From positions 1,559-65,558 of the forward strand of contig JAJKHS010000055.1 of assembly GCA_021154885.1 (NCBI GenBank): DNA of 64,000 bases, given 5' to 3'. This document shows positions 3,246-52,522 of the stretch, one piece after another (positions within the stretch are counted from its first letter, which is position 1; the number at the start of each line of letters is the position of its first letter). Position numbers and translations under genes: made by a program. Below the pieces are notes generated by a model. The model had not been told where the DNA came from. It saw only the letters and a program-made list of their open reading frames with translations, and searched no databases. This DNA is from Thermoanaerobaculum sp. (GTDB taxonomy: Bacteria > Acidobacteriota > Thermoanaerobaculia > Multivoradales > UBA5704).

Positions 3246-5743
3246 TGGAAGAGCTGGCCGGGCTGGAGAATCCCGAGGATCTCCGCCGGGCCCTGGAGCC
3301 GATTCCCGCCGCCTACGGCGCCTGGATCGCGGGGCGGCGCGAAATCGATCCCGGAAGCGATGCCAGCCGGCGAGCCACCCGCGACGAGCTGATGGACGAA
3401 GCCGGGCGGGCCTGCCGGCGCATCGGTGACGGCATCGATCTCCTCGCACGGAGCGCCGAGGTGCGCCACGCCTTCCGGCTGGCCAACCGGGCCATGGCAC
3501 TGTCGGCGCGGAAGCGCAGCCCGGAGCGCTACGCGGACGGCTCGGCGCCCCACTGGTTTCTGTTTCAGCTCGCTTTTCTCCTGCTCAACCTGCCGGCCCT
3601 GGACGATCCGCGCCGGGAGGACCGGGACGACGTGGAGCTGATCTTCTTTCCCACGGGTGGCGGCAAGACGGAGGCCTACCTGGGCGTCATCGCCTTCGTG
3701 CTATTGCTGCGCCGCATGCGGGGCCAGCAGCGGCCGGACGCCGGCCTCGGCGTGGCCGTCATGCTGCGCTACACCCTGCGGCTGCTGACGCTCGATCAGC
3801 TCTCTCGGGCGGCGACGCTGGTCTGCGCCCTGGAGGTTCTGCGGCGGGAGGACCCGGCCCGCCTGGGCACCGTGCGCTTCGCCGCCGGCCTCTGGGTGGG
3901 CGGAAGCGCCACGCCCAACAAGCTGGAGGATGCAAAGACGCAGATTCTCGACTACAAGAACAGCTCCTCGGCCCGGTTCCCGAGCCCCTTTCCCTTGACG
4001 GTCTGCCCCTGGTGCTCGGAGCCGCTGGGCCGGGACAGCCTGACCCTGGAGCCGCGCGAGACGCCGCGACAGGTGATCGTGGGCTGCGGCAATCACCTCT
4101 GCGACTTCGCTCCCGGCCGCTTCCCCGAGGGCCTGCCGGTGCTCTTCGTGGACGAGCAGATCTATCGCGAGCTGCCGGCGTTCCTGATCGCCACGGTGGA
4201 CAAGCTCGCCATGCTCCCCTGGCGCGGCGAGGTCGGGCTGCTCTTCGGCCGTGCCCTCGCCCGCGACGGCCGGAGTCTGTATGGACCGGTGGACGCCGCG
4301 CTCGGCATGATTCCGCGCAGCGCCCGGACGGCCCTTCCGGAGGGCCTCCTGCCGCCGGAGCTGATCGTGCAGGACGAGCTTCACCTCATCTCCGGCCCCC
4401 TCGGCACCATGACCGGCCTCTATGAAACGGCGGTGGAGGCGCTCTGCCTGCGCACGCTGGAGGACGGTACGGTGGTGCGGCCCAAGATTCTGGCTTCGAC
4501 CGCCACGGTGCGGCGGGCGCGGGAGCAGATCCTCTCCCTCTTCGGGCGCGACAGGACGGCGATCTTTCCGCCGCCCGGTGTGGACGACGGCGAGACCTGG
4601 TTCGCCCGCGTCGATCACGACTCGCCCGGCCGGCTCTACGTGGGGGTCGCCGCCACGGGCCGCGCCATGAAGGCCATTCTGCTGCGCGTCTACGTCGCGC
4701 TGCTCGCCGCCGCGAACGCGCTCTACGATCCCACGGGACCGGAGGACCAGACTTCGGACGCTTGGATGACCCTGGTGGGCTATTTCAACAGTCTGCGCGA
4801 GCTCGGAGGGATGCGGCGGCTGGTGGAGGACGAGGTCCGCACCCGCTGCGACAAGGCCGAGGACCGCCGGCCGGAGGGCTCGGCGGGGCCGAATCCCTGG
4901 TTCCGCGACCGCAAGGTGACGCCCGAGCCCCTGGAGCTGACGAGCCGCGAGGACGTGGGGAGCGTCAAGAGCGCCAAGGCCCGCCTTGCTCACCCCTTCC
5001 GCCATGCCGAGCACGTGGATGTCGTGCTGGCGAGCAACATGATCTCCGTCGGGCTGGACATCGACCGCCTGGGCCTGATGGTCGTCGCCGGGCAACCGAA
5101 GTCGACGAGCGAGTACATTCAGGCCTCCAGCCGGGTAGGCCGGCAACGCGACCGGCCGGGGCTGGTCGTCACCTGCTTCAATCTGCACAAGCCGCGCGAC
5201 CGCTCTCACTACGAGCGGTTTCCGGCGTATCACGAGAGCTTCTACCGCTTCGTGGAGGTGTCGAGCCTGACGCCGTTCTCGGGTCCGGCGCTCGACCGGG
5301 GCCTCGCCGGCACCCTGCTCGCCATGGCGCGGCAGAACGATCCCACGCTCACACCGTCCACCGCGGCCATGCACATCCGCGAGCACCTCGATCTGGCCGG
5401 CGAGGCGGTGCGCGGCCTGGCCGAGAGGGGCGCCAGCCAGCCCGGCCTCACGCCGGGGCAGAGCGATGCCGTGAGAGCCAACCTGACCCTGCGCGCTCAA
5501 GGCCTGGTGGACGCGTGGGAGCGGCTGGCGCAAATCGCGACGGAAGGCGGCTACCGGCGGGTCTACTCGCCGTGGGACCGTGGCAAGTCCGCGGCGGACC
5601 GCACGATGCTGCGCCAGGTGCTCGACCGGCCGGAGGACCAGGCGCCACCGGAGGCGAAGCTGTTCACGGCACCCACCTCCATGCGGGAGGTGGAGCCCTC
5701 CACGCACCTCTGGCTGCGCAGCCGGCTGGGAGGAAAAGGCTGA
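3246..5743 (+). CDS. SF2 DExH helicase with internal zinc ribbon; DISARM DrmA-like (start uncertain, may have lost N-terminus to the IS21 insertion)
   Basis: Motif I FFPTGGGKTEAYLG, Ia/Ib region, motif II VQDELHLISG (DELH), motif III KILASTATV, motif VI QASSRVGRQ; CPWC..x..CGNHLC zinc ribbon between Ia and II; stop TGA overlaps ATG of next gene (TGATG). Confidence 0.6.
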
Positions 5744-7632
5744 TGGCCGGGCGTCCGCCGCGCCGGGGAGGCCCCGGTAACTCCAAGCCCGTCGCCTACC
5801 AGAAGCCGGCTGGCACCGTGCGGCGCAGCCAGGTGGTGCGCACCAACGGTCCCGGCGCCATGATCGATCTCGTGGACCACGCCGTGATGGTCGGCGGGCT
5901 CGACTTCTGGCGCTACGCTCCGCAGGACATTACGGCGTGCACCTTGTCCGAGCCCCGGCTGCGGGACCGGCTGGAGCCGCGCTTCGTCGAGGCGGGCCGC
6001 CGCCTCGCGCAGGAAGGATGCTTCCGGCTGCCGCCCCTGGGGGAAGAAAAGAAGGCGACGCCGGACTCGGGGATCGAAGTCCTCGAGCTGCCCCGGTGGT
6101 TCGTCTGCCAGAACCCGGCGTGCCGCGCCCTCGTCCACGCCGATGGATTGGCTCAAAGAGGGTCGCGCTACCGTCATGAGTGCATCCGGCCGAAAGGCTC
6201 AGAATCCGTGCCGGTGCGCTTCGTGGCCACCTGCCGGAGGGGGCACGTCGAGGAGTTCCCCTGGGTCTGGTTCGCGCACCGCAACGTCGAGGCGGTCTGC
6301 CCGGCTCCCAGCCTCAAGCTCCAGGAGGGCGCGACCGGCGACTTCTCCGAGATCCTCGTGAAGTGCGCCTGCGGCGCCCAGGAGAGGCTCTCGACGGCGC
6401 TGATTCCCAACTCGCTGCCGCACTGCGAGGGACACCGGCCGTGGCTGGGCGAGGCGGGGCGCGAGAGCTGCGAGGAGAAGCACCTGCGGCTCTTGGTGCG
6501 CAGCGCCAGCAACGCCTACTTCGGCCAGGAGGTGAGCGCTCTTTCCATTCCCGAGCGAGGCCGCAAGCTGGAGGCCGCGGCGCGGCAGGTGTGGCACATC
6601 CTCCAGGTGGCCGACGCCGCAAGCCTGCCGGCGTTTCGCAGCATCCCCCAGGTGAAAGACGCCCTGGGCACGGCCTCGGACGCCGACGTGCTGGCCGTCA
6701 TCGAGCAGATCCGGATTGGGGGCACGCCCGTGCGGGAGCCGTTGCGCACGGCGGAGTATCGCCAGCTCGTCGCCGTGGAGCGCGAGACCCCGGGCGAGCT
6801 GCCACCGGACGGCGGCGACTTCTTCGCCCGGGAGGCGACACCGGACGGCGGACCGATTCCCAAGATCGCGCGCCTGGTCCTCATCCCCAAGCTGCGGGAC
6901 GTGCGGGTGCAGATCGGCTTCACGCGGCTGGAGCCGGTCATGCCGGACCTGGAGGGAGAGTTCGACCTGGCCGTGCAGTCGGCACCGCTCTCCCTCACTC
7001 AGGACTGGCTGCCGGCCAGCGAGGTGCGCGGCGAGGGAGTGTTCATTCAGCTCGACGAGAAGGCGGTCTGGGATTGGGAGCGGCGGCCCGAGGTGCAGGC
7101 CCGGGAGCGCGAGCTGGCGGCGGGCTACCGCGACTGGCTCTCGACGCTGACGGGAGACAAAGCGCCGCCGTTCCCGGGCGTGCGCTTCTATCTCCTCCAC
7201 TCGTTGTCGCACCTGCTGCTGACGGCGATCTCTCTGGAATGCGGTTATGCGGCGAGCGCCATCCGGGAACGCATCTACTGCTCGCGGGCCGATAGCGATA
7301 CGCCCATGGCGGCGATCCTCCTCTCCACGGGCAGCCCGGGAACCGAGGGCACCCTGGGCGGCCTCGTAGAGCAAGGCCGCAACCTGCGCCGGCATCTGAG
7401 GAGAGCCTTGCGGCTGGGAGAGCTCTGCTCCAACGATCCGGTCTGCGCCGGCCACTCGCCGCAGAACGATCACTCGGAGAGATTCCTCGAAGGCGCCGCC
7501 TGTCACGGCTGCCTGTTCGTCGCCGAATCCTCCTGCGAGCGCTTCAACCGCTACCTCGACCGCTCCCTCGTGGTGCCAACCCTGGGGCATCCGCCGGAGC
7601 TGGCTTTCTTCGAGCAGCGCGAGGGTTCTTAG
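5743..7632 (+). CDS. DUF1998-domain protein (DISARM DrmB-like), Cys/Zn-ribbon rich
   Basis: C-terminal block FYLLHSLSHLLL...CSNDPVCAGH...GAACHGCLFVAESSCERFNRYLDRSLVV matches the conserved Cys signature of DUF1998; N-terminal half has several CxxC/CxH pairs; translationally coupled to upstream helicase. Confidence 0.65.
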   Translation: MAGRPPRRGGPGNSKPVAYQKPAGTVRRSQVVRTNGPGAMIDLVDHAVMVGGLDFWRYAPQDITACTLSEPRLRDRLEPRFVEAGRRLAQEGCFRLPPLGEEKKATPDSGIEVLELPRWFVCQNPACRALVHADGLAQRGSRYRHECIRPKGSESVPVRFVATCRRGHVEEFPWVWFAHRNVEAVCPAPSLKLQEGATGDFSEILVKCACGAQERLSTALIPNSLPHCEGHRPWLGEAGRESCEEKHLRLLVRSASNAYFGQEVSALSIPERGRKLEAAARQVWHILQVADAASLPAFRSIPQVKDALGTASDADVLAVIEQIRIGGTPVREPLRTAEYRQLVAVERETPGELPPDGGDFFAREATPDGGPIPKIARLVLIPKLRDVRVQIGFTRLEPVMPDLEGEFDLAVQSAPLSLTQDWLPASEVRGEGVFIQLDEKAVWDWERRPEVQARERELAAGYRDWLSTLTGDKAPPFPGVRFYLLHSLSHLLLTAISLECGYAASAIRERIYCSRADSDTPMAAILLSTGSPGTEGTLGGLVEQGRNLRRHLRRALRLGELCSNDPVCAGHSPQNDHSERFLEGAACHGCLFVAESSCERFNRYLDRSLVVPTLGHPPELAFFEQREGS

Positions 7633-11587: not shown

Positions 11588-12088
11588 ATGGCCGCCGCCG
11601 AGAACTCGTTCGACATCGTCTCCACCGTGGACCTCCAGGAGGTCCGCAACGCCGTGCAGCAGGCGGAGAAGGAGATCGCGAACCGCTATGACCTAAAGAA
11701 GGCGGCGGCGGTGCTGCGCTTGGAGGGGGAGGAGATCGTGCTGGAGGCCGCGGACGACTTCTCGGTCCAGCAGGCGCTCGACGTGCTGCAGTCGAAGCTG
11801 GTCAAGCGCAGCGTCAACCTCAAGTCGCTGCGCTATGGCAAGGTCGAGCCGGCGAGCGGCAGCCGCGCCCGGCAACGGATCACCCTGCAGCAGGGCATCC
11901 CCATCGAGACGGCCAAGAAGATCGTCGCCGAGATCAAGACCAGGAAGCTCAAGGTGCAAGCCGCCATCCAGGGGGACACGGTGCGCGTCTCCGGCAAGAA
12001 CCGCGACGACCTGCAGACGGTCATCGCGGCACTCAAGGCCCTGGACCTCGACATCCCCCTGACCTTTTCCAACTATCGCTCCCAGTGA
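11588..12088 (+). CDS. yajQ: YajQ-family (UPF0234) nucleotide/c-di-GMP-binding protein
   Basis: SFDIVSTVDLQEVRNAVQQAEKEIANRYD.. matches YajQ N-terminus; 166 aa. Confidence 0.8.
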   Translation: MAAAENSFDIVSTVDLQEVRNAVQQAEKEIANRYDLKKAAAVLRLEGEEIVLEAADDFSVQQALDVLQSKLVKRSVNLKSLRYGKVEPASGSRARQRITLQQGIPIETAKKIVAEIKTRKLKVQAAIQGDTVRVSGKNRDDLQTVIAALKALDLDIPLTFSNYRSQ

Positions 12089-20533: not shown

Positions 20534-20602
20534 CTCCGGCCGCAGTGGTCTGGGCTCTCGGTTGGTTTGAGCTGCTCTTTCATGTGCTAGGGAGGTATGA
20601 CC

Positions 20603-21988
20603 ATGTTCGAAGATCATCCGACTGTCGAGGATTTCACCGGCTTCCTGCAGGACGCCTCTCGACCGGGCCACGCCGCGCGCAACGCCAGAATCCTGCGTCA
20701 CCTCCTGGCCGAGTGTCCGGCCTGCCGTGGCGAGCTTCAGGCGATGGGGTGGCCGGCCCGCAGGCTGGAGCGGCTGGTCTACCTCCCTGGCGCCCAGAAC
20801 GGGCAGGCCGAACCCCAGGGCACCGGCGGCTTCAACTATGCAAACGCCTTTGCGAGGGCTGATCAGTCCGTCTCCGATCTCCTCATTGCGACTCCGCAGC
20901 CGGCGGTCCCGCCCAGTCAGCTCCTGGAGGAGCTGGACCGGACGGCTCGCGACCGGCAGGTCGCGCTGGTGGAGGAGGATGAACGGTTCGCCAGCCCCCG
21001 GTTGGTTCACTGTCTGATCGAGCGCAGCCACGAGGATCGCTACTCGGACCCCGACGCCATGCTGCACTGGGCGAGCGTAGCCCGCAGCATCGCGACCCGC
21101 TGCTCGCCCGAGACTCTGGGCAACGCCGCCAAGGTCGCGGACCTGAGGGCCCAGGCCTGGGGCCAGTATGGCAACGCGCTGCGCGTGGCCGGCCGGTTGC
21201 GGGAGGCCTCGGAGGCGATGATTACGGCTCAGGGCTACCGCGAGGGGGGAACGGGAGAGCCCGCCCTACACGCCAAGCTCGCGGAGCAGGTCGCATCGCT
21301 GCACACGTTTCAACGGCGTTTCGACGCCGCCATCGCCAGCCTCGAGGAAGCAGCGGAGATCTACCGCCAGCTCGGAGAGAGTCACGCGCTGGCGAGGACC
21401 CTGGTGCAACAGGCCATCGCCTCGCTCTACGCCGGCGACCCGGAGAGCGCGGTCCAGCTCCTGAACCAAGCGATCCCGCTCATCGATCACGAGGAAGATC
21501 CGCATCTCCTCCTCGCCGCCTGCCACAACCTGGTCCATTCCTACATCGAGCTCGACCGGCCCGAGCAGGCGCTGTCGATCTACTCCGAAACCCGGGAGCT
21601 GTACAAGGAGTTCAGTGACAGCCTCATTCAGCTCCGGTCCGGCTGGCAGGAGGGGCGAATCTTGCGTGACCTGGGTCATCTGAGGGCGGCTGAGATGGTG
21701 CTCATCCAGGCGCGCTCCGGTTTCATGGAGCGAGGGCTCATCTATGAAGTGGCCGTGGTGTCCCTCGACCTCGCGGCGCTCTATGTCAAGATGGGCGCCA
21801 TCGATGACGTGCGGCAGACCGTGGTCGAAGCCGTGCCCATCTTCCGTGCCCTGGGAGTAGACCGCGAGGCCCTCGCCTCCTTGCTTCAGCTTCAGCAGGT
21901 CGCGCACCAGGAACAGGAGGCCTTGGATCTCATTCGTTTCCTTAACGCGCGTATCGAGCCGTTCTCCCAGCGGAGACTGCTCCGATAG
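20603..21988 (+). CDS. cytoplasmic ZAS-like zinc-finger (HxxxCxxC) + TPR-repeat protein, paralog 1
   Basis: N-term MFEDHPTVEDFTGFL...ILRHLLAECPACRGEL (H-x3-C-x2-C as in zinc anti-sigma factors); C-terminal ~350 aa TPR-like helical repeats ending ASLLQLQQVAHQE. Confidence 0.55.
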   Translation: MFEDHPTVEDFTGFLQDASRPGHAARNARILRHLLAECPACRGELQAMGWPARRLERLVYLPGAQNGQAEPQGTGGFNYANAFARADQSVSDLLIATPQPAVPPSQLLEELDRTARDRQVALVEEDERFASPRLVHCLIERSHEDRYSDPDAMLHWASVARSIATRCSPETLGNAAKVADLRAQAWGQYGNALRVAGRLREASEAMITAQGYREGGTGEPALHAKLAEQVASLHTFQRRFDAAIASLEEAAEIYRQLGESHALARTLVQQAIASLYAGDPESAVQLLNQAIPLIDHEEDPHLLLAACHNLVHSYIELDRPEQALSIYSETRELYKEFSDSLIQLRSGWQEGRILRDLGHLRAAEMVLIQARSGFMERGLIYEVAVVSLDLAALYVKMGAIDDVRQTVVEAVPIFRALGVDREALASLLQLQQVAHQEQEALDLIRFLNARIEPFSQRRLLR

Positions 21989-22558: not shown

Positions 22559-22621
22559 GCGTCAGAGTCGAGCCGGCAGGTCTCTCGTCTTTTGATTTGT
22601 TCTGTCGCTGGGAGGTGCCCT

Positions 22622-24010
22622 ATGTTCGATCATCACCCGACTGCTCAAGATTTCGAGGGATTCCTGCGGAGCTCCTCCCGGCCGGCAGGCTCGACTCGTA
22701 ACCCACAGATCCTGCGTCATCTGCTTGCGGACTGCCCGGTCTGCCGGGTCAGTCTCGGCATCCTCGGCTGGAGTGAGCAGCGCCTGCGCCTCTTGACGCC
22801 GCGGGACGGCGACTCCTTCCGTGAGCAGATTTCGGAAGCCGCGATCAGGAACAGCTACGACTACGATCGTGCCTTTGCCGCGGTGGATCGCGCCGTGGCC
22901 GCCCTGCTGACCCAGGAGAGACCGGCGGAAATCTCGGCCGAAGCCTTGATGGCCGAGCTGCTCGCGTCGCCGGCAGATCGCCAGGCCGAGCTCGTGGCCG
23001 GGCAGGGCGACCGTTTCGGCTCCCCGCCGTTCGTTCGCCTGCTGATCGACCAGAGCCACACCGCCCGCTACCGGAACACGGAGGAGATGCTGCGCCTCTC
23101 CGGCCTGGCGCGGCTCGCCGCCACGGCCTGCTCTCCCGAGCAGGCCGGCAACGAGCTGCGGCTCGCCGATCTGCGAGCCCGGGCCTGGGGCCAGCACGGC
23201 AATGCCCTCCGCGTCTGCGGCAGGCCGCGGGAAGCCGAGGAGGCGTTCGCCACGGCGCAGGGCCACCGGCTCGCGGGGACCGGAGATCCGGCGTTGCGGG
23301 CCTGGCTCTTCGAGAAAATCACGCCGCTGTACATCTTCCGCGAGCGCTACGAAGAGGCCGTGGAGCTCTGCGAGCAGGCGGGCCAGATCTACCAGGACCT
23401 CGGGGAGCGACACCTGCAGGCCAGCACGCTCGTCCAGAAGGCCGTCGCCTGCGTGTACTCCGGGGAGACCGTGGGCGCGATCCGCACCCTCAACCAGGCC
23501 ATCCCGCTCATCGATCACGACGAGGATCCCCACCTCCTGCTGGCCGCCTGCCACAACCTCATCCGCTGCTACATCGACCTCGGCCGGCCGGATCAGGCGC
23601 TGTTGCTCTACTCCGAGACCCAGGACCTCTATCACGAGCTCGACGACACTCTCATCCTGTTGCGGGCTCTCTGGCAGGAGGGTCAACTGCTGCGCGATCT
23701 GGGCCACCTGCGGGCGGCGGAGACGGCCCTGCTGCGGGCGCGCAAGGGCTTCCTGGAGGAAAACCTGATCTACGAGGTGGCGCTGGTCTCCCTCGACCTT
23801 GCCTCGGTCTACGTCAAGCTCGGTCTGGTCGAGGACCTGAAGGCCACGGTCGCCACGGCCCTGCCCGTTTTCCAATCCTTGCAGGTAGAGCGCAAGACAA
23901 TCGCCTCGCTGCTCCAACTCCAGCAGGTCGCGGACCAGGAGTACCAGGCGCTGGAGCTGATCCGGGTCCTGAGCTCCCGCATCGAGCCCCTCGCCAAGCG
24001 CTCTTCCTGA
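22622..24010 (+). CDS. ZAS-like zinc-finger + TPR protein, paralog 2
   Basis: MFDHHPTAQDFEGFL...ILRHLLADCPVCRVSL; same architecture and C-terminal ASLLQLQQVADQE tail as paralog 1. Confidence 0.55.
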   Translation: MFDHHPTAQDFEGFLRSSSRPAGSTRNPQILRHLLADCPVCRVSLGILGWSEQRLRLLTPRDGDSFREQISEAAIRNSYDYDRAFAAVDRAVAALLTQERPAEISAEALMAELLASPADRQAELVAGQGDRFGSPPFVRLLIDQSHTARYRNTEEMLRLSGLARLAATACSPEQAGNELRLADLRARAWGQHGNALRVCGRPREAEEAFATAQGHRLAGTGDPALRAWLFEKITPLYIFRERYEEAVELCEQAGQIYQDLGERHLQASTLVQKAVACVYSGETVGAIRTLNQAIPLIDHDEDPHLLLAACHNLIRCYIDLGRPDQALLLYSETQDLYHELDDTLILLRALWQEGQLLRDLGHLRAAETALLRARKGFLEENLIYEVALVSLDLASVYVKLGLVEDLKATVATALPVFQSLQVERKTIASLLQLQQVADQEYQALELIRVLSSRIEPLAKRSS

Positions 24011-24131: not shown

Positions 24132-25481
24132 TTGAGCCTGGAGAACGGGTGCACTGCCGTGGAATACCATCTCAGCGCTGAAGACTTCGAGCGTCTCCTC
24201 GGGCGCTGCCCGCAGCCGAGCCACGCTGAAAGCAACGCCCTTATCGTCCGTCACTTGCTTACAGACTGTCCGGCCTGCGGCCGGACGCTCCAGGAGCTGC
24301 GCGGCGGGCGCGCATTACTGTCCCGTCTCCTCGAGGTGCCGCTCCCCCAGGAGAATCCGGAGAGTCCGGCCTCCCAACCTTTCAACTACGATTGGGCCTT
24401 CGCCCGCGCCGAACGTACTTTCGCTGCCCTGCTCGCCCACGGCCGCCCTCCCGAGCACCTGCCCGAGCGTTTGGCGGAGCTGGCCAGCCTGCCGGAGAGA
24501 GAACAGTTGCGGCGAGTCGGCGCCAACGACCGTTTCGCCAATCCCGACCTCATCCACTGCCTGCTTGAACGCAGCCATGCGGCGCGCTACCAGAGCCCTA
24601 GGAAGACCTTGCACTTGGCTCATTTGGCGCGTGCGGCAGCGGAGGCGTGTACACCGGAGGCGGCCGGCGGTGTCGGATCGCTCGCGGATCTACGGGCGGA
24701 GACCTGCGGGGCCTTCGCCAACGCAGAGCGGATTTGCGGCAACTTGACGGAGGCGGAGAGATTTTTTGCTCTTGCTTTCCAGTTTCAGAAGGCCGGAACC
24801 GGCGCTCCGCGCCTACGCGCCCTCTTGCTGTCCCAACTCTCCTCACTACGCCTCTTTCAGCGACACTTCCAGGACACGATCAAGCTCGCCGAGAAGTCCG
24901 CGACGATTTACTGTGGGCTCGGTGAAGACCATCTCGTGGCAGGCGTCATGGTGCAGCAGGCCACTGCACTGCTTTACTGTGGAGATGTGGAGAGCGCGGT
25001 CGAGACCCTCCAGCGGGCGATTCCCGGGATCGACCGGAGCGAGGACCCCCGGCTGTTCTTGGCCGCCCAGCACAACCTTGCCCGCTGCTATATCGATCTC
25101 GATCGGCCCGAGGAAGCCCTTGCCGTACACTTCAATGCACGCGAGCTCTATCGAGAATGCCCGGACCCGCTGATCCTCCTGCGGGCGATCTGGCAGGAGG
25201 GACAACTCCTGCGGGAGATCGGCCACCTGCATAACGCGGAGGCCGCCTTGCTCCGCGCCCGGGAGGGATTCATGGAGCATCGATTGGCCTACGAAGCGGG
25301 ATCGGTCTCCCTCGACCTCGCAGAGGTATATTCGAAGCTCGGTCTCACCGCGAAGCTGCGGCAGACGATTGCGGAAGCGGTTCCGATCTTCCGCGCGCTC
25401 CAGGTGGATCGAGAGGTCGTCGCCTCTCTGCTCCGACTCCAGCAGGCCGCCTCAGAGGCGCCCGAGGAGAAGACCGGCTAG
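24132..25481 (+). CDS. ZAS-like zinc-finger + TPR protein, paralog 3 (no preceding peptide gene; start TTG 24132 or GTG 24159)
   Basis: VEYHLSAEDFERLL...IVRHLLTDCPACGRTL; C-term ASLLRLQQAASEAPEE. Confidence 0.5.
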   Translation: MSLENGCTAVEYHLSAEDFERLLGRCPQPSHAESNALIVRHLLTDCPACGRTLQELRGGRALLSRLLEVPLPQENPESPASQPFNYDWAFARAERTFAALLAHGRPPEHLPERLAELASLPEREQLRRVGANDRFANPDLIHCLLERSHAARYQSPRKTLHLAHLARAAAEACTPEAAGGVGSLADLRAETCGAFANAERICGNLTEAERFFALAFQFQKAGTGAPRLRALLLSQLSSLRLFQRHFQDTIKLAEKSATIYCGLGEDHLVAGVMVQQATALLYCGDVESAVETLQRAIPGIDRSEDPRLFLAAQHNLARCYIDLDRPEEALAVHFNARELYRECPDPLILLRAIWQEGQLLREIGHLHNAEAALLRAREGFMEHRLAYEAGSVSLDLAEVYSKLGLTAKLRQTIAEAVPIFRALQVDREVVASLLRLQQAASEAPEEKTG

Positions 25482-25733: not shown

Positions 25734-26123
25734 TCAGGTCCGGCTGCGCTCCTCTTTCCACAGCCGGCGCCGGGCGATGGCGTTCTTGACGACGCGCAGG
25801 CTCTGGTCGAACCGGCGATCGAGCGCCCGCTGACTCAGAGCCGCGGCGCCGGGCGCGGCCTTGTGCGCCCCGTTGCCCGGTACGGAAGCCCCGGGCTCGA
25901 AGCCGTACAGCCAAGCGAAAAAGTCCGGGGGCGTGGTGTTCAGCAGCGGAAGGACGTCGAGCACGTCCTCGAAGCTCAGCCGGTGTCGCCCGTCGAGCAG
26001 GTCCCGGAGCCGCCCCGGCTCCCAGCCGAGGTGCTGCTCCACCGACTCCAGAGGGATCCCGCTCTGGACGATCAGCTCGCGCAGCAAGCCGGCGATGCGT
26101 CGCTCTTCAGGATGTGTAGCCAT
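25734..26123 (-). CDS. XRE-family helix-turn-helix transcriptional regulator (start at internal ATG 26123 preferred)
   Basis: RRIAGLLRELIVQSGIPLESVEQHLGWEPGRLRDLLDGRHRLSFEDVLDVLPLL fits HTH_XRE pattern. Confidence 0.5.
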   Translation of the reverse strand: MATHPEERRIAGLLRELIVQSGIPLESVEQHLGWEPGRLRDLLDGRHRLSFEDVLDVLPLLNTTPPDFFAWLYGFEPGASVPGNGAHKAAPGAAALSQRALDRRFDQSLRVVKNAIARRRLWKEERSRT

Positions 26124-26247
26124 TGCTAAGTTCTTGCTTCCATCCATACTACCAGCAACTGCCCGGCGGAGCCAGAGGTGCGGACTCCCGGCGGCAAGCT
26201 TAACCCAACCCTTCGGCGCTTCAGGGTTCATGTAAAGTCCTCCCGGG

Positions 26248-26940
26248 ATGCGTCAGAACCTCTTCGCTCTTCCTCTGCGGGACACGGTCCACGGCCTCGA
26301 TCGCTGCCTCCATGCCGGCGTGCGCGGCCTGGCGCTGGCCGCCCTGGGCCTCGTGGCCGGCTGGTGGCTCTACGTCCCCCTGCATGAGCTCCTCCACGCC
26401 GCCGCCTGCCGGGCGGCGGGAGGCCGGGTGACTCGCCTGGAGATCGACGCGGCCTACGGCGGCGCCCTCCTGGCGCGCGTCTTCCCCTTCGTGGTGCCGG
26501 CGAGCGACTACGCCGGGCGCCTCTCGGGGTTCGACACCCGCGGCAGCGACCTGATCTACCTGGCGACCGACCTGGGGCCGTTCGTGCTGACGCTGTTCCC
26601 GGGGGTTTGGGCTCTGCGGCGGGCGGCGGCGGCCCGCCGGCCGCTCCTCTTTGGCGCGTCGCTCCCCTTCGCCCTCGCGCCCTTCCTGTCGCTCACCGGG
26701 GACGCCTACGAGATCGGCTCCATTCTGGTGACCCATCTCCCCCCCTGGGCGACGCCCGCCGTTCGCGGGCTGCTGCGGGGCGACGACCTGGGGAAGAGGG
26801 TTTCGGAGCTGGCGGCAGCGGCAGGCGCCCCCTGGGGGGGTGCCGCCCTGGCGGTGGCTGCCGGGGTGGTCTGGGCGTTCCTGACCTACGGGCTGGGGAG
26901 CGTCGTGGCGAGAAAGCTGGGAGCGCCGTCTCTCCATTAG
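26248..26940 (+). CDS. polytopic membrane protein with HExxH (HELLH) motif; DUF3267-like putative intramembrane zinc metallopeptidase
   Basis: VPLHELLHAAAC zinc-binding motif after first TM; ~230 aa hydrophobic. Confidence 0.45.
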   Translation: MRQNLFALPLRDTVHGLDRCLHAGVRGLALAALGLVAGWWLYVPLHELLHAAACRAAGGRVTRLEIDAAYGGALLARVFPFVVPASDYAGRLSGFDTRGSDLIYLATDLGPFVLTLFPGVWALRRAAAARRPLLFGASLPFALAPFLSLTGDAYEIGSILVTHLPPWATPAVRGLLRGDDLGKRVSELAAAAGAPWGGAALAVAAGVVWAFLTYGLGSVVARKLGAPSLH

Positions 26941-27968
26941 CCCGACAGCCGCTCCCAGTCGTTGTCGGGAGCGTCCGTGGCGATGGCGAGGCCGCCGTCC
27001 GAGCCGACGAAGATCGGGTCCTTCACCACCTTCACCTTGCCGCCGCCCACCGCCTGCAGCTCCTGCTCGAGGCGTTGCCCCAGGCCCCGGATGAGGCCCG
27101 TGCCGCCGGAGAGGACGACGTGGTTGCGCACCCGCTCCTGGTACTCGGGCTGCACGCGGGAGAGCAGGTCGAGCATGGACTCGGTCAGCGACGGCAGGAT
27201 GCTCTCGCAGGCCTGCTGCATCTCGCGGGTGATGTCGAGCTGGGTCGGCTTGCCGTTGACCGGGGCGGTGACGACGACCGGCGCCTTGGTGGTGCCCACG
27301 AAGCTCCCCTCCTCCTTCCAGTTGCGCACCATGTGGATGGAGAACCTGGCGTCCGGGTAGCGCTCGCGGGTGAGGCGCATGAGCTGGTCGTCGACGAAGT
27401 CGCCGGCCTGGGTGAGGGTGCGCTGGTCCTCCTCGGTGGGCAGGCGGCCGTTCATCACGCAGATGTCGGTGGTGCCGGCGCCGATGTCGATGATCATGGT
27501 GTGCAGCAGCTCTTCAAGACCATAGGCCACGGCGAAGGGCTCGGAGACGATCATCAGGCTGTCGACGGCGTCCTGGAGGGCCTTGCGCACCTGCTGCTTG
27601 TTGACCCGTAGCGCCTCGGCCGGAACGCCGACCACGGCGCGGACCTTCACGCCGTTCTTCGCCTCGCGATCGACGCCGACCAGCGACAGCAGGTGCCAGA
27701 GCAGCTCGCGCACGGCGGCCTCGTCCTTCTCCGAGCCGTCCTTGATCAGACCCTGCTCCAGGGGGCGGTGGAGGTCCAGCATGGAGCGGTTGTCCAAGGC
27801 CTCGCGGCCGACGAGGACGGGCTTCTTCAGGACCTTGCGAGCCACCATGTCCAGCGGCCAGCCGACGTAGCTCTCCACCACGTGGCGCTGGCCGTTGGAC
27901 GCCGAGATGGAGCTCCGCGACGTGCCCAGGTCGATCCCCACGTGGAGGACCTCTTTCTTCTCACTCAT
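26937..27968 (-). CDS. MamK-family actin-like filament protein
   Basis: GIDLGTSRSS, YVGWPLDMVA, HRPLEQGLI, VVGVPAEAL, IVSEPFAVAYGLE, IIDIGAGTTDICVM collinear with MamK motifs; RBS GAAAGGAAG; overlaps amidase stop by 8 nt. Confidence 0.75.
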   Translation of the reverse strand: MSEKKEVLHVGIDLGTSRSSISASNGQRHVVESYVGWPLDMVARKVLKKPVLVGREALDNRSMLDLHRPLEQGLIKDGSEKDEAAVRELLWHLLSLVGVDREAKNGVKVRAVVGVPAEALRVNKQQVRKALQDAVDSLMIVSEPFAVAYGLEELLHTMIIDIGAGTTDICVMNGRLPTEEDQRTLTQAGDFVDDQLMRLTRERYPDARFSIHMVRNWKEEGSFVGTTKAPVVVTAPVNGKPTQLDITREMQQACESILPSLTESMLDLLSRVQPEYQERVRNHVVLSGGTGLIRGLGQRLEQELQAVGGGKVKVVKDPIFVGSDGGLAIATDAPDNDWERLSG

Positions 27969-29061
27969 GGATCGGGCTTCCTTTCTCGCCGGCCACGGTC
28001 TCCGAAGCGCCCTCGCCGGCCTCCGCATAGGCGCGGATCCCCTTCGCCAGGGCTTCGGCGATGTACTGCCGGTACAACGGTTTGGTCAGCAGCCGGGCCT
28101 CGTCCGCGTTGGACAGGGAGGAGACCTCGGCCAGGATGGCGGGCATCTCGGTGGAGAGCAGCACGATGAAGGGGGCCGCCTTGACGCCCCGGTCCGCCAC
28201 CTCCGGGCTCAGCTTGCCCACGGACTGGAAGAGCGCGCCCTGCACCACCTCGGCCAGCTTGCGCGATTTGTCCTGTCGCACGCCGGCATAGATGCGGTCG
28301 AGGAGGTGGCGCATGTCGGCCATGGAGTAGCCGGACTCCCGGTTCTCCGCCGCCGCCAGCCGGGTCAGGTAGGGGTCGTCCGTGGGACCCAGATAATAGG
28401 TCTCGACCCCCCGCGAGCGGCGATTCTCGATCCAGTTGAGATGGATAGAAACGAAGATGTCGGCCCCCGCGCGATTGGCCAGCGCCCCCCGCTGCTCGAG
28501 GGAGACGTCCCGGTCGCTCTCGCGCGTCATCACCACCTGGAACTCCTGGTCCAGCAGGCGCTTCAGCCGCACGGCGATGTCGAGCGTCAGGTCCTTCTCC
28601 AGCACTCCCCGGGGAGTGCTGGTGCCGACGCTGGTGCCGCCGTGGCCGGCGTCGATGACGATCTTGCGCACGGCGAGGGGGAAGATCGCGGCGTCCACGG
28701 GCCGAGGGGCCGAAAGGCCGGCGAGCGCCGTCCCGTTCGCCGAAATCGCCGACGCCGCCAGGATGGGCTGTGGCGCTTTCGCCGGCACCTTCGCGGGACG
28801 CGGCGCGGCGGCGACGGCCGGGCGGGGCTCGGCCAGCGTCGAAAGCAGCCGCGAGGAGCCGAACAGGGCCAGGGAGAGCAGGGCGAGGGAGGCGAAGCGC
28901 AGGACCAGCCGCAGGGTATCGCGGCGGCGCAGGACGCGCGGCGGCCGGCCTTCGATCAGGTCGACGTTCTGCTGCACCAGGTCCCGGAGGAGCTGGCGCT
29001 TGATACGGTCCACGTTGGCCACGTACTTCACTTCGTCCCGGCGAATTTCAGGGGCATGCAT
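27961..29061 (-). CDS. N-acetylmuramoyl-L-alanine amidase (Amidase_3, AmiC-type) with N-terminal TM anchor and no AMIN domain
   Basis: KIVIDAGHGG...GTS...EKDLTLDIAVRLKRLL...VVMTRESDRDVSLEQRGALANRAGADIFVSIHLN; start ATG 29059-29061 in frame; track N-extension rejected. Confidence 0.78.
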   Translation of the reverse strand: MHAPEIRRDEVKYVANVDRIKRQLLRDLVQQNVDLIEGRPPRVLRRRDTLRLVLRFASLALLSLALFGSSRLLSTLAEPRPAVAAAPRPAKVPAKAPQPILAASAISANGTALAGLSAPRPVDAAIFPLAVRKIVIDAGHGGTSVGTSTPRGVLEKDLTLDIAVRLKRLLDQEFQVVMTRESDRDVSLEQRGALANRAGADIFVSIHLNWIENRRSRGVETYYLGPTDDPYLTRLAAAENRESGYSMADMRHLLDRIYAGVRQDKSRKLAEVVQGALFQSVGKLSPEVADRGVKAAPFIVLLSTEMPAILAEVSSLSNADEARLLTKPLYRQYIAEALAKGIRAYAEAGEGASETVAGEKGSPIHE

Positions 29062-29090
29062 TCTACTACAGGCGCGCCGGCTATCGCCGA

Positions 29091-30503
29091 TTACTGCTTC
29101 TGCAGGTGGATCCGCAGCCGGTTCTCCCCCTCCTCCACCCGCGTCACGGTCACCTTCGGACCGGCGAGGTCGAGGACGACGTGGAGCTCGTCGCCCGCAT
29201 GGAGACCGGTGCGCACCTGCAGCACTTCCGGGGTCCCCACCACCAGGCGGGCCGCCGGAGCGGGGCGCCTGATGCCGGAGATGCGGATCAGCTCGCGGGG
29301 CGGATTGCCGTCGATCCGCGTGCGGACGTAGCTCCCGGAGTGGATGGCGCCGTTGCCCCACAGGATGACGTCGGTGCCGCCGAAGGCCTTTTCGAAGGTG
29401 ATCTTTTCCACGCCCGTGGCCGCCGGTCCGTTGTCTTCGGGGATGGCGGGCACCGGCGCCGGCTTCTCGGATTGCGGCTTGGGACCGGGCCTGGGGCTCG
29501 CCGGCGTGGTCTGGGCGACGGGAGCGGGAGGCGCAGGAGTCGCTGCGGGAGGCGCGGGACGTACCGGGCTCACCTCGGTCTCCGGGCCGGCCGGCGCGCC
29601 CGCGGTATCGAGCGGGGGAGCCGACGCCGGCGTGGCGGCGGGCGAGGCCACGGGGAGGGCCGGCGTCCGCAGGCGCCCCGGCCGCCGGCGCACGGCGGGC
29701 GGAGATGCCTGGGCGACCTCGTTGCCGCCGCCCAGGCCCGCGAGGCCGAACAGCGTATCGCGGAACAGCCAGGCGCCCGCCGCCAGCCCCACCAGCACCG
29801 CCAGCAGGACCCACGGCAGGGCCCGGCGGGTCCGGGGTGGGGGCCCGCCGGCCAGGGTGGACGCGAAGAGCGGCGCCGCCGCGGGATCGTCGTCCACGGG
29901 AACGGGCGTGGCCTCCGGCTCCGGCCCGCCCGGAGGGAACCCGGGAAGGGGCTCCGCCGGCAGCGGCTCCCGCGCCTTCATCCAGTCGTCCCGGGACGGC
30001 TCATAGGGCGACGGATCGAAACCGCCTGGCTCTTCCGGCTCCTGCCTCGGGGACGGGAGCCAGGGAGCGGCGACGGCCGGAGGGGCCGCCACGGGCGGCG
30101 GGACCGGCACCGGATCCGAGGGACGCTGGGTGACGTCGAACGGCGTGCCCCCCTGCTGAATGTGGTGGTCGACGATGCGGTAGATCAGCTCCTTGCTTCC
30201 CAGGCTCAGCTCCAGGAAGCGGAGGCCCATGCCCGCCGGCCGCGCCGGACCCTCGTCCTCCGGCCGCACCCACACCACCTCGCCGCGCCCCTTGATCAGC
30301 TCGAAGCCGTCGCCCAGGCGGAACTCGAACTCGAGGACGGTGCCCGGCGGCTGCGGCGTACGGGTGCGGATGAACATCCCCCCGGGAGAGATGTTGGCGG
30401 AGAAGTCGCTCAGGAAACCGCTGAAGCGGTCGAACTTGAACTGGACGCGCGTCTCGAGGGGCACGCGTCGCGAATCGCGGGGGATATTGGAGTAGTCGAC
30501 CAT
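29091..30503 (-). CDS. PilZ (c-di-GMP-binding) domain - Pro-rich linker - TM - C-terminal AMIN domain protein
   Basis: N-term RDSRRVPLETRVQF...DFSANISPGGMF (RxxxR + D/NxSxGG PilZ signature); TM ALPWVLLAVLVGLAAGAWLF; C-term ...HAGDELHVVLDLAGPKVTVTRVEEGENRLRIHL resembles AMIN beta-sandwich repeat. Confidence 0.6.
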   Translation of the reverse strand: MVDYSNIPRDSRRVPLETRVQFKFDRFSGFLSDFSANISPGGMFIRTRTPQPPGTVLEFEFRLGDGFELIKGRGEVVWVRPEDEGPARPAGMGLRFLELSLGSKELIYRIVDHHIQQGGTPFDVTQRPSDPVPVPPPVAAPPAVAAPWLPSPRQEPEEPGGFDPSPYEPSRDDWMKAREPLPAEPLPGFPPGGPEPEATPVPVDDDPAAAPLFASTLAGGPPPRTRRALPWVLLAVLVGLAAGAWLFRDTLFGLAGLGGGNEVAQASPPAVRRRPGRLRTPALPVASPAATPASAPPLDTAGAPAGPETEVSPVRPAPPAATPAPPAPVAQTTPASPRPGPKPQSEKPAPVPAIPEDNGPAATGVEKITFEKAFGGTDVILWGNGAIHSGSYVRTRIDGNPPRELIRISGIRRPAPAARLVVGTPEVLQVRTGLHAGDELHVVLDLAGPKVTVTRVEEGENRLRIHLQKQ

Positions 30504-30596
30504 GGAGGACGCCGATCATAGCAGCATCGAAACGCGAGCCCTACACCGCTGGGAGGCCGCACGGGTTTATGGTAGAAAGGCGGCGGAGGCAACCCT

Positions 30597-31826
30597 ATGA
30601 GCACGACCGTGCTGGAAAACCAGGCCGCGACCACGGACCTGATCGCCCTCGAAGAGCGGTACGGAGCCCACAACTACCATCCTCTGGACGTCGTGGTGAG
30701 CCGCGCGGAAGGCGTCTGGGTCTGGGACGTCGAGGGCCGCAGATACCTCGATTTCCTCGCCGCCTACTCGGCGGTCAACCAGGGGCACTGCCACCCCGAG
30801 ATCCTGAAGGCGCTGGTAGAGCAGGCGCACCGCGTGACCCTCACCTCGCGGGCTTTCCGCAGCGATCAGCTCGGCCCCTTCTACCGGCAGGTCTGCGAGC
30901 TCACCGGCTTCCAGAAATTCCTGCCCATGAACACGGGCGCCGAGGCGGTGGAGACGGCCCTCAAGACCGCTCGCAAGTGGGCCTACAAGGTCAAGGGCGT
31001 GCCGGAAGGCAAGGCCGAGATCATCGCCTTCAACAACAACTTCCACGGCCGCACCATCACCATCGTCAGCTTCTCCACCGAAGCGGACTACCGCGACGGC
31101 TTCGGCCCCTTCACCCCCGGCTTCCGCGTCCTCCCCTACGGCGACGCCGACGCCGTGGAGAAGGCGATGCATGAGAACGTGGCGGCGGTGCTCGTCGAGC
31201 CCATCCAGGGCGAGGCGGGCATCGTCCTGCCGCCGGCCGGCTACCTCGGGCGGCTGCGGGAGATCACCCGGCGGCACGGCGCCCTGCTCATCGCCGACGA
31301 GATCCAATCCGGCCTCGGTCGCACCGGCAAGCTCTTCGCCTACCAGCACGAGGGCATCCGGCCCGACGTCGTGATCGTCGGCAAGGCTCTGTCGGGCGGC
31401 TTCTACCCGGTCTCCGGCATCCTCGCCGACGATCCGGTCATGGACGTCTTCAAGCCCGGCCAGCACGGCTCCACCTACGGCGGCAACCCCCTCGCCGTGG
31501 CCGTGGCCCAGGCCGCCCTGCGGGTGCTGGTCGAGGAGAGGATGGTGGAGAATTCCGCCGAGCTCGGCCCCTATTTCCTGGAGCGGCTGCGCCAGATCCA
31601 GTCGAGGCACGTCAAGGAGGTCCGCGGCCTGGGGCTTTGGATCGGCATCGAGCTGCACCGCGAGGCGGGGGGCGCCCGCCGCTTCTGCGAGGCGCTGCAG
31701 AAGGAAGGGCTGCTCTGCAAGGAGACGCACGACCATGTCATCCGCATCGCCCCCCCGCTGGTCATCAAGAAGGACGAGATCGACTGGGCGGTGGAGCGGC
31801 TGGAGAGGGTGCTGACGACGCTGTAA
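30597..31826 (+). CDS. rocD: ornithine--oxo-acid aminotransferase (class III PLP aminotransferase)
   Basis: [42 protein letters not shown]; 409 aa. Confidence 0.85.
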
Positions 31827-50752: not shown

Positions 50753-52522
50753 TTACATCAGCCGCAGATCCCGCTTGATCTCGTTGATCCGCGCCTGGAC
50801 CGCCCCACGGTCCAGGGTGCGGAAGCGCTCCGGCAGCAGCTCGCGGCTGGTGCTTTCAAGGACGGCGCAGAGGATTTGCATCTCCCGTTCCCGCGAGTTG
50901 GCCGGCGGGATGAAGTCGCTGAAGGCCTTCTGCAGATGCTCGGCCTTCACTTCGGAGGAGTCGGCCGCCTCGGCCTCCAGGGTGGCCCGCACCAGCACGG
51001 CTTCGAGGTCCGAGCCGGAGAGGCCCAGGTACTGGTCCTCCGTCGCCACGCTGGAAATAGAGGTCACCGCGGTCTTCAAGCCCAGCTTCTTCAGCATCAC
51101 GCGGTAGATCTCGTCGTACTCGGCCGCCGTCTCCGGGTAGAAGAGGGGAATGTGCTCCTCGGCCCGCCCCTGGCGCTTGAGGTCGATGGGCAGCAGGTCC
51201 GGCCGGGCGGTGATGAGGAACCAGAGGATCCGGCCGCGGTATTGGGTGTCGCCCATGAAGGCGGCGATCTGCGCGAAGACGCGGTTCTGGGTGCCGGAGT
51301 CCCCGGACTGATCGCGATTGCCGAGCGCGGCGTCGGCCTCGTCCACCACCACGCCCACCGGGGTGAGCGAGGCGAGGATCTTCAGGATCCGCTCCAGGTT
51401 GGATTCGGTGGCGCCCACCCACATGGAGCGGAAGTTCTTCAGCTTCACGCACGGGAAGCCGATCTCGTTGGCGAAGCACTCGACGAGGAACGTCTTGGCG
51501 CTCCCCACCGGGCCGCAGATCAGATAGCCCATGGGCACCGCGGCCGGGTTCCCCCGGGCGATGGCCCGGGCGGCGCGGCGCAGACGGTCCTTGACCGCCG
51601 GCATGCCCGCCACCATCGAGAGGTCGAACTTCGGCTCCACGTACTCCAGCAGGCCGAGCCCCTCGGTCTCGATGACCTCCTTTTTCATCGCCCGCACCCG
51701 CTCGCGGGTGAGGTGGTCGCCGTTGGCGTCGGCACCCTCCAGGAGCTGCCCGATCTGCACCCGGGTCATGCCGGCGGTCAGCTCGGCGAGCCGCTGGGGC
51801 GGCAGGTCCGACTTGCTTGCGTACCACTCGGGGAAGCGCACGGCCTGGAGATAGGTGAGCCGCTCGCCCGGGTCGGGACGGACGATCTCGATCTCCCGCG
51901 TCGAATGGGAGCGCACCAGCTTGGGGTCCAGCTCGGCCAGGCTCTCCGTCACCATCACGATGACGACGTTCTTGGCCAGCAGCACCGGGTCCTGCGACCA
52001 CTTGCGGAGATAGACCAGCACAGCCCGGTCCTCCGGCGTGCGGTAGGCCACCTCGGCGGCGGGGACGATCGTCTCGGCGAAGGGCAGCAGGAGCGCCACC
52101 GGCCGCGCCGGCTGGCAGGAGGCGCACTGGAGATAGTAGGAGTCGAGCAGGGCGAAGCAGTTGGGCGCGTCGCGGGGCAGGCCGTCCGCCCAGCCCGTGC
52201 CATGTACGGCGTCGTAGCCCTTCACGAAGCCCTGGAAGTGGTTGCGCGCCGCGGGCGTGGCAAAGCCCAGGCCCTCGGCGCGATTGTAGGTGACGATGGA
52301 CGGCCAGCCGGCGAAGAGCTGCTGGACCAGAAAGTCATCGAGCGACAGGAAGCGCAGCCCGGCCGAGCCGCGCACCGGCACCAGGTCGGCCGGCACGCCG
52401 TGGATGACGAAGGTGTTCGCCTGCTTCGCGGTGATGGCCCGCACCAGCTCCGACGCCCAAGGCGGGAGCGAGTCCAGGAAGACCGGCGGCGAGACAGCGG
52501 CGGTTTCAGGCATCGCAGGCAC
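50753..52522 (-). CDS. classical AAA+ ATPase (Vps4/katanin/CDC48-type single AAA domain with large N-terminal region)
   Basis: Walker [23 protein letters not shown], Walker [10 protein letters not shown], arginine finger region ...[17 protein letters not shown]. Confidence 0.8.

Follow-up and report, generated by a model that had tools for sequence, protein, structure and literature searches.

A MamK-like actin gene paired with a membrane-anchored peptidoglycan amidase, and joined in one clade by a PilZ–AMIN-fold gene, in Thermoanaerobaculia

Cytoplasmic actin-family filaments are known to work together with bitopic adaptors, following the logic of FtsA–FtsN and MreB–RodZ, and in B. subtilis the actin homologue MreBH governs where the wall hydrolase LytE acts. 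AMIN domains, in turn, are known to target proteins to septa or poles. Among the relatives of the magnetosome actin MamK, saltatorellin from Saltatorellota (bioRxiv 10.1101/817700) and BeeR from Verrucomicrobiota (PMC11929497) are found in non-magnetotactic bacteria and have an unknown cellular role; neither paper mentions an amidase, and the BeeR paper contains no discussion of operons or genomic context. Our searches of the literature for MamK/amidase/PilZ, for PilZ with AMIN, and for MamK with Acidobacteria found no description of a system that combines these elements, in agreement with a preliminary description of the locus reported here, which had been aware of no account of its architecture.

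The locus lies in a 64-kb stretch of DNA (hereafter, the window) from a metagenome-assembled genome (MAG) of Thermoanaerobaculia (Acidobacteriota), a common and almost uncultured lineage of soils and sediments. Three minus-strand open reading frames, found where the preliminary description had placed them, encode a PilZ–TM–AMIN-fold protein (gene 1), an Amidase_3 enzyme (gene 2) and a MamK-like actin (gene 3) and form a predicted tight operon (Table 1), in which the actin gene shares its first 8 nt with the end of the amidase gene, including the stop codon. The divergent intergenic region upstream of gene 1 is presumed to be the operon promoter, although this is only inferred, as no sigma-70 consensus was found upstream of the operon; a scan of the operon for promoters and terminators returned nothing. 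Downstream lie a convergent gene for an HExxH-like membrane protein and TPR and HTH genes, which are syntenic among close relatives.

Table 1. Features of the three-gene locus; positions are those of the window.
Feature	Position	Strand	Basis
Gene 3, MamK-like actin homologue, 343 aa	26937..27968	-	Profile searches, alignments
Gene 2, membrane-anchored Amidase_3 peptidoglycan amidase (predicted), 353 aa from GTG 29022	27961..29022	-	
Amidase_3 catalytic domain	28033..28662	-	Pfam; aligns with AmiA 8c2o, AmiC 4bin, AmiB 3ne8
Regulatory insertion of ~39 aa, homologous to the blocking and interaction helices of AmiA/B/C	28273..28389	-	Alignment
Amidase TM anchor (predicted), residues 37-55	28858..28914	-	Hydropathy
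Conserved N-terminal helix of the amidase, predicted cytoplasmic (ANVDRIKRQLLRDLVQQNVDLIE)	28951..29019	-	Motif HMM
Gene 1, bitopic PilZ–linker–TM–linker–AMIN-fold protein (predicted), 470 aa	29091..30503	-	Profile searches, motifs, hydropathy
C-terminal AMIN-fold domain, residues 360-470, predicted periplasmic	29094..29426	-	
Single TM helix of gene 1 (predicted), residues 229-247	29763..29819	-	Hydropathy
PilZ domain, residues 9-111, predicted cytoplasmic	30171..30479	-	Pfam, TIGR02266, motifs
Divergent intergenic region, 93 bp, between the PilZ gene and a rocD-like aminotransferase gene	30504..30596	-	ORF layout, upstream sequence

The assignment of gene 3 to the MamK family held up. Its closest solved relative is MamK from Magnetospirillum AMB-1 (5ljw), to which it aligns in full (40% identity across 334 residues, 272 bits), and the NCBIfam MamK model (NF040964) is by far its best-scoring family, at 380.3 bits, a narrow miss of the cut-off of 400. 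The nucleotide-hydrolysis (ATPase) residues E143 and D161 are shared with MamK (5ljw/5jyg) and are invariant in our alignment. In contrast to MamK, however, the invariant neighbour of gene 3 is a peptidoglycan amidase, its host belongs to a non-magnetotactic lineage of Acidobacteria, and neither the window nor the related loci with examined neighbours contain magnetosome (mam) genes. BeeR is much more distant from gene 3 (200 bits where NCBIfam requires 530, and 128 bits to the structure 8r2n), and it carries a disordered N-terminal extension that gene 3 lacks. The start of gene 3 is likely the ATG at 27968, which is preceded by GAAAGGAAG. Long proteins with a C-terminal MamK-like domain, retrieved in a Rosetta-stone check, have N-terminal extensions in which no Pfam domain was found.

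As for gene 2, the preliminary description proposed an AMIN-less Amidase_3 enzyme with a cytoplasmic tail and a TM anchor, and this agrees with the Pfam match to the catalytic domain (E 7.5e-47), the absence of a Pfam AMIN domain and the hydropathy profile. The zinc ligands (the His of GHGG, the Glu of EKD and the His of SIH) are invariant, and the protein shares with E. coli AmiA, AmiB and AmiC the Amidase_3 fold, the zinc His/Glu/His, the latch Glu and the hydrophobic interaction helix, while scoring below the cut-offs of the NCBIfam equivalogs (91 vs 400 bits for AmiA, 90 vs 700 for AmiC, 89 vs 532 for AmiB and 114 vs 222 for CwlD). Its regulatory insertion aligns throughout with AmiA 8c2o and is spanned by single stretches aligned to AmiB 3ne8 and AmiC 4bin; it is skipped in 5emi, and the stretches aligned to 4rn7 and 1jwq end before reaching it. 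E226 corresponds to Glu167, the zinc latch of AmiA, and L240, L241, I244, Y245 and V248 correspond to AmiA L184, L185, V188, L189 and L192. Both the latch Glu and the hydrophobic face of the helix are invariant in the homologues and match those of the published mechanism of AmiA autoinhibition (PMC10268282), although the fifth resting-state ligand, Asp135 in AmiA, is replaced by Asn. The enzyme is thus predicted from sequence alignment to keep the autoinhibitory regulatory domain of AmiA/B/C, and, rather than an AmiC-type amidase deprived of its AMIN domain, as had been suggested, it is closer to AmiA. Given that this domain is retained, the amidase probably continues to depend on a LytM-type activator, the gene for which would lie elsewhere; in contrast to the E. 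coli enzymes and their LytM activators (FtsEX–EnvC, NlpD), the operon contains no activator gene. The contribution of the operon is more plausibly to position the enzyme than to gate it.

The N-terminus of the amidase sets it apart from AmiA/B/C, which are exported and soluble, as gene 2 instead has an apparently uncleaved, N-in TM anchor and a cytoplasmic helix. The open frame extends up to 29814, its upper stretch overlapping gene 1, and NCBI places the start at ATG 29061 (366 aa), but since the homologues begin at MANVDR, the GTG at 29022 (353 aa) is the likely start. From there, a conserved 35-aa segment, predicted to be cytoplasmic, precedes the TM helix, which follows RVLRRRD and has five K/R in its N-flank. 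The motif xNVDRIKRQLLRDLVxxNVDL was matched by an HMM in 74 of 84 amidase frames, including those of PilZ-less loci; of the ten frames missed, eight are cut short by the end of their contig, and the other two (L081 and L084) present a degenerate form by eye. This motif is better conserved among homologues than the TM segment and the linker, and residues 2-24 are predicted to be helical in an AF2 model of the full amidase built with 35 homologues, which has low confidence (mean pLDDT of 51) and was taken for secondary-structure hints only. The hydrophobic segment could also be read as a Tat signal, but homologues preserve the preceding helix and not the twin arginines, and the segment is therefore better regarded as an anchor. 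The amidase is, then, a predicted type-II (N-in) membrane protein with a short, strongly conserved, charged cytoplasmic helix, and the N-terminal motif is the likeliest link to the actin and our candidate contact.

The product of gene 1 is identical (100%) to a protein (P0121) annotated as ‘TIGR02266 family protein [Acidobacteria bacterium]’. Its N-terminal domain is confirmed as PilZ, with matches above the cut-offs to both PF07238 (E 3.4e-14, 53.5 bits against 22.5) and TIGR02266 (88.6 bits against 68.7), and it is a predicted c-di-GMP receptor in which the two binding motifs, RxxxR (R9DSRR13) and (D/N)xSxxG (N37ISPGG42), are intact and at least 95% conserved in 120 homologues. The single TM helix has a hydropathy maximum of 2.17, with RTR on its N-side and no K/R on its C-side, consistent with the positive-inside rule, and both linkers are around 26-28% proline. 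The C-terminal domain had been described as AMIN-like, and this is only partly sustained: its best structural match is the AMIN fold of AmiC, but the isolated 111 aa fall below the Pfam AMIN (PF11741) GA threshold (14.2 bits, E 0.047, against 20.5), the full-length protein has no Pfam AMIN match, none of the 120 homologues has a precomputed one, and a profile of the domain against PDB sequences gave no AMIN, only chance matches. Thus, the domain is an AMIN beta-sandwich fold by structure only, below the Pfam threshold, and its location is periplasmic by inference from the predicted topology (N-in, one TM). Whereas AmiB and AmiC carry AMIN at their own N-terminus, here the AMIN fold is found on a separate PilZ protein. 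By analogy, gene 1 may be compared with FtsN and RodZ, as it appears to combine a cytoplasmic element, one TM, a proline-rich spacer and, at the C-terminus, a wall-binding or beta-rich domain; however, the proteins are unrelated in sequence, PilZ forms the cytoplasmic part and an AMIN fold stands in place of SPOR.

A scan for the actin, built on a seven-sequence alignment, showed the module to be widespread in Thermoanaerobaculia. Across 80 species-level genomes, all of them MAGs, the gene immediately upstream of the actin is the amidase at all loci whose contig extends that far, and the pair is still present at 54% actin identity. The arrangement recurs in dozens of species-level genomes, far beyond chance. 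In 27 of 78 loci the stop of the amidase gene overlaps the start of the actin gene, and in 71 the two lie at most 30 nt apart, a spacing from which the two genes are predicted to be translationally coupled. Since the flanks of the pair vary between clades, this linkage seems to be selected rather than residual synteny; upstream of PilZ-less loci, for instance, there are unrelated divergent genes, and no further conserved partners were found upstream or downstream across loci. The PilZ–AMIN gene behaves differently: the triplet is kept in 42 of 43 close loci but in only 5 of 17 distant ones, so that its conservation, which the preliminary description had made a test of its proposal, holds among close relatives, while conservation reaches deeper for the amidase–actin pair. 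Even a close relative, L007, has no PilZ–AMIN gene at the locus, and this gene must therefore be dispensable or encoded elsewhere. In an unbootstrapped NJ tree, the PilZ–AMIN-positive loci form one large derived clade, and basal pairs lack the gene while their amidases are already AMIN-less. For these two reasons, the PilZ–AMIN gene looks to have been added to an ancestral AMIN-less pair, a conclusion that depends on that tree, and the earlier proposal that an AMIN domain was split off from the amidase onto a c-di-GMP receptor is disfavored.

The reading that we prefer, and that we regard as evenly balanced between right and wrong, is that of a lineage-specific envelope module of Thermoanaerobaculia in which a periplasmic amidase is linked through the inner membrane to a cytoplasmic filament of MamK-family actin. 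The N-terminal helix of the amidase would bind the filament, which would set the position of the enzyme in the envelope, most probably where the cell divides or at new poles, so that daughter cells can separate, while catalysis would still be switched on by a LytM-type activator encoded elsewhere. In the derived clade, which includes this window, a second bitopic protein would have joined the pair, its periplasmic AMIN-fold domain binding (septal) peptidoglycan and its cytoplasmic PilZ domain tying the position or dynamics of the assembly to the c-di-GMP level. The full version, in which the filament is a track or scaffold that captures the TM amidase by its helix and dictates where the wall is cut, with the PilZ–AMIN adaptor coupling c-di-GMP and septal wall state, is tentative and rather unlikely to be correct as a whole. 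Given that no LytM, FtsEX, Mre or Fts genes were found within the 64-kb window, the role in division is a guess by analogy.

Three other explanations have to be weighed. The filament could be an MreB-like scaffold of the lateral wall and the amidase a space-making hydrolase for growth and shape rather than septum splitting, which would fit the annotation of gene 3 in source databases as ‘rod shape-determining protein MreB’, its Pfam MreB_Mbl match (E 3.9e-23), the lack of any mreB in the window and the MreBH–LytE precedent, even if LytE, unlike gene 2, is a secreted NlpC/P60 endopeptidase with no TM tether and does not share an operon with mreBH. We nevertheless find it improbable, as the similarity to MreB is weak (58 bits to 1jce against 272 to MamK) and far below the NCBIfam MreB cut-offs (75.9 vs 293 and 62 vs 366 bits), the regulatory domain of the amidase is typical of division amidases, AMIN domains are known for septal or polar targeting, and no mreCD, rodA or pbp2 lies next to the operon. 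It is also quite unlikely, in our view, that the operon is a lineage-specific accident in which a housekeeping amidase, an unrelated actin and a PilZ signaling protein are co-transcribed without physical coupling; the absence of the accessory PilZ–AMIN gene from basal clades and L007 and the unrelated functions of the flanking genes would agree with it, but the pair is kept with overlapping or nearly abutting codons down to 54% actin identity, with all flanks replaced, and the conservation throughout of a cytoplasmic motif in an enzyme of the periplasm is difficult to account for unless it has a partner in the cytoplasm. Finally, a polar landmark, in which the PilZ–AMIN protein marks septal or new-pole peptidoglycan as the AMIN of PilQ does and anchored MamK-like filaments position other cargo while the amidase remodels the wall locally, for example for a trans-envelope machine, has little likelihood, as genes for pili, secretins, chemoreceptors or magnetosomes are absent next to the operon, both in this window and in those related loci whose neighbours were examined, and the invariant partner of the actin, also in clades without PilZ–AMIN, is the amidase, which is thus the most economical cargo.

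The amidase–actin module that we favor suggests an undescribed way to steer cell-wall cleavage from inside the cell. MamK relatives outside magnetosomes, such as BeeR and saltatorellin, are without a known job, and here one clade of them is obligately paired, at the genetic level, with an enzyme whose biochemical activity is known, so that the amidase–actin pairing offers a directly testable hypothesis. If true, this would be the first amidase positioned by a cytomotive filament and would give the MamK family a defined function outside magnetosomes, and it could hint at the role of MamK-type actins before magnetosomes. It would also represent the first case of a PilZ receptor and a peptidoglycan-binding AMIN fold in one protein, leading from c-di-GMP to wall remodeling, and a new solution to the spatial confinement of dangerous wall hydrolases by bacteria, in which the proposed tether, a TM link to a cytoplasmic actin, would be layered on the known LytM-type activation switch.

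Domain identities, topology signals and conserved motifs are clear in the products of this operon, and the linkage between its amidase and actin genes is tight and selected. The preliminary description had proposed three minus-strand genes, and all of them are confirmed as open reading frames, the most likely start of the MamK-like actin gene (gene 3) overlapping the stop of the amidase gene (gene 2) by 8 nt. The open frame of gene 2 reaches 29814, its upstream portion overlapping gene 1, which encodes the PilZ–AMIN-fold protein; given that amidase homologues begin with MANVDR, we placed its start at the GTG. The window belongs to a Thermoanaerobaculia (Acidobacteriota) MAG; the database proteins P0121 and P0391, both encoded on a contig of 179,609 bp, are 100% identical to the products of genes 1 and 2, respectively.

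Features of the operon, its surroundings and related loci (window positions unless a locus is named)
Feature	Positions	Strand	Remarks
Gene 1	29091-30503	minus	470 aa
Gene 2, amidase	start GTG 29022	minus	353 aa; NCBI alternative ATG 29061, 366 aa
Gene 3, MamK-like actin	likely start ATG 27968	minus	Shine-Dalgarno GAAAGGAAG in front
rocD-like aminotransferase gene	30597-31826	plus	divergent flank of operon
Membrane-protein gene	26248-26940	plus	convergent flank of operon; 230 aa
Three TPR_12 genes	20597-21988, 22592-24010, 24132-25481	plus	about 450-470 aa
HTH_31 gene	25734-26231	minus	adjoins TPR_12 genes
PspA/IM30-family and AAA ATPase genes	50753-53338	minus	directly adjacent
Start of window, low GC in first 2 kb	1-2775		integrase-core (rve) gene 2128-2775
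DUF520/YajQ-family gene	11588-12088	plus	E 4e-62
L007, related locus	3721-4680, 4912-5970		close relative; PilZ–AMIN gene missing here
L087, related locus	1-4507		chemotaxis cluster with P0249
C-terminal MamK-like fusions (P0250, P0253, P0255-P0260, P0264-P0268; L088)	L088 692-3031		523-1232 aa

Of at least 581 confirmed matches in a scan with the actin alignment, restricted to one genome per species, 80 loci were returned, with actin identities of 66-90%. Wherever upstream DNA was present in this set, tblastn found an Amidase_3 gene immediately upstream of the actin; the amidase stop and the actin start overlap in 27 of 78 loci and lie no more than 30 nt apart in 71 of 78. Co-transcription without any contact between the three proteins is one possible reading of the operon, but we consider it improbable.

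Gene 1 is less constant. Among loci with at least 2.2 kb of upstream sequence, 42 of 43 at 79% actin identity or more carry the PilZ–AMIN gene (the exception being locus L007), but only 5 of 17 at 60-79% do, so the triplet suggested by the preliminary description is conserved among close relatives and mostly not beyond them. In PilZ-less loci the amidase is preceded instead by a divergent gene, which is unrelated between clades, and an actin representative at 54% identity has an overlapping upstream Amidase_3 gene without a PilZ gene. In a crude neighbor-joining tree of the actins, which carries no support values, the PilZ-less loci are basal and the PilZ–AMIN-positive loci form one derived clade, with L007 nested within it. 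Since the basal amidases have Amidase_3 as their sole domain and the PilZ–AMIN clade is derived in this tree, the evidence indicates that the ancestral unit was an AMIN-less amidase plus an actin, which later gained the PilZ–AMIN gene; the earlier idea that the targeting domain had been split off from the amidase is thus disfavoured. At L007, the actin is 90% identical, the PilZ–AMIN gene is missing from the locus and the upstream ORF looks RdgC-like by eye; the accessory gene was either lost or relocated. In two other related loci, L030 and L064, the PilZ part lies in a different reading frame or ORF from the AMIN-like part, probably owing to frameshift errors in long-read MAGs.

Gene 2 encodes an Amidase_3 enzyme (E 7.5e-47) with a cytoplasmic tail and membrane anchor, as had been proposed: a charged helix motif at residues 2-24 (ANVDRIKRQLLRDLVQQNVDLIE) precedes a basic stretch, after which comes a TM helix (37-55). 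An HMM of this N-terminal motif, whose conservation exceeds that of the TM segment and that of the linker, matched 74 of 84 amidase frames, PilZ-less loci included; 8 of the 10 misses are frames truncated at a contig end, and the remaining two, from loci L081 and L084, have a degenerate motif visible by eye. A Tat signal was rejected because the twin arginines are not conserved in homologues. The AF2 model of the full-length protein is poor (pLDDT 51).

The catalytic domain contains an insertion of about 39 aa, which HMMER aligned through with AmiA (8c2o); single stretches cover it in AmiB (3ne8) and AmiC (4bin). The alignment to Nostoc AmiC2 (5emi) skips it, and those to 4rn7 and 1jwq end before it. 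In AmiA, Glu167 is the zinc latch on a blocking helix, and the hydrophobic face of the interaction helix (L184, L185, V188, L189, L192) docks into the LytM groove of EnvC (PMC10268282). E226 of gene 2 aligns with Glu167, and L240, L241, I244, Y245 and V248 align with the five interaction-helix residues; all are invariant or nearly so among 35 homologues. This conservation makes it probable that the enzyme is autoinhibited and depends on an activator. Neither the operon nor the 64-kb window contains a LytM gene.

The PilZ assignment of gene 1 is well founded (residues 9-111, Pfam E 3.4e-14; TIGR02266, 88.6 bits, cut-off 68.7). Its two motifs for binding c-di-GMP, R9xxxR13 and N37xSxxG42, show conservation of 95% or more across 120 homologues. 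Proline-rich linkers (26-28% Pro) lie on both sides of a single TM helix (229-247) with positive-inside flanks. The C-terminal domain had been described as AMIN-like; it reached Pfam AMIN only as an isolated domain and below threshold (E 0.047, 14.2 bits, GA 20.5), none of the 120 homologues has a precomputed AMIN match, and a profile of 29 homologues of the domain matched no solved AMIN sequence. We call it a divergent AMIN-fold domain, not AMIN by sequence, and its predicted topology is periplasmic. Proteins of the DUF520/YajQ family have been reported to bind nucleotides or c-di-GMP, and the member in the window is the sole other candidate c-di-GMP-related gene that we saw there.

Gene 3 scores 380 bits against NCBIfam MamK (cut-off 400) and 272 bits against AMB-1 MamK (40% identity), compared with 128 for BeeR and 58 for MreB, which agrees with its placement in the MamK family. 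Relatives at 50% identity or below occur in other gene contexts. For instance, at L087 the MamK-like gene P0249 (43% identity) lies inside a chemotaxis cluster (CheA/CheW, CheC, CheD, actin, unknown gene, CheC/CheX), a context that points to a further role of the family outside magnetosomes. Long proteins with a C-terminal MamK-like domain are 40-46% identical to gene 3, and no Pfam domain was found in their N-terminal extensions of 190-900 aa.

As for the surroundings, the convergent flanking gene overlaps the end of the actin gene by 4 nt and has a homologue at the equivalent position in 30 related loci; its multi-TM product has no Pfam match but carries a HExxH-like motif (LHELLHAAAC) that is conserved, and it may be a membrane metalloprotease that has escaped annotation. 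The TPR_12 proteins are paralogous, the second and third sharing an N-terminal HLLxDCxxC motif, and together with the HTH_31 gene they accompany the operon in related loci, which looks like synteny among close relatives. The PspA/IM30 and AAA ATPase genes could act together in membrane remodelling or stress. A mobile element or an insertion probably accounts for the start of the window (GC 0.58 in the first 2 kb versus about 0.69), where the integrase-core gene is followed by a 981-aa helicase-domain protein.

The genes and layout of the preliminary description thus stand, while its interpretation, a c-di-GMP-gated and actin-positioned amidase, is supported in part. We class the operon as a putative system in which the cytoskeleton or an adaptor guides a division-type amidase, with a MamK-family actin as its basis. 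The cytoplasmic N-terminal helix of the amidase would bind the MamK-like filament as a tether, so that the filament positions the enzyme, while its activation would still depend on a LytM factor. Through the PilZ–AMIN protein, the assembly could be coupled to septal peptidoglycan outside and to c-di-GMP inside. The regulatory domain, which is of the division type, and the AMIN partner would make the division site or new pole the likeliest location. A module for the lateral wall or cell shape seems doubtful by comparison, and we attach similarly little weight to a polar landmark or a module for other cargo.

FtsA–FtsN, MreB–RodZ and MreBH–LytE are analogous systems. The closest are MamK itself, its non-magnetosome relatives saltatorellin and BeeR, and AmiA/B/C–LytM (PMC10268282). 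Full-text searches of open-access papers and preprints found none that links a MamK-like actin with an amidase or describes a PilZ–AMIN protein, in line with the earlier impression that this architecture had not been described. The main value of the operon is that it makes the role of non-magnetosome MamK relatives experimentally simple to approach.
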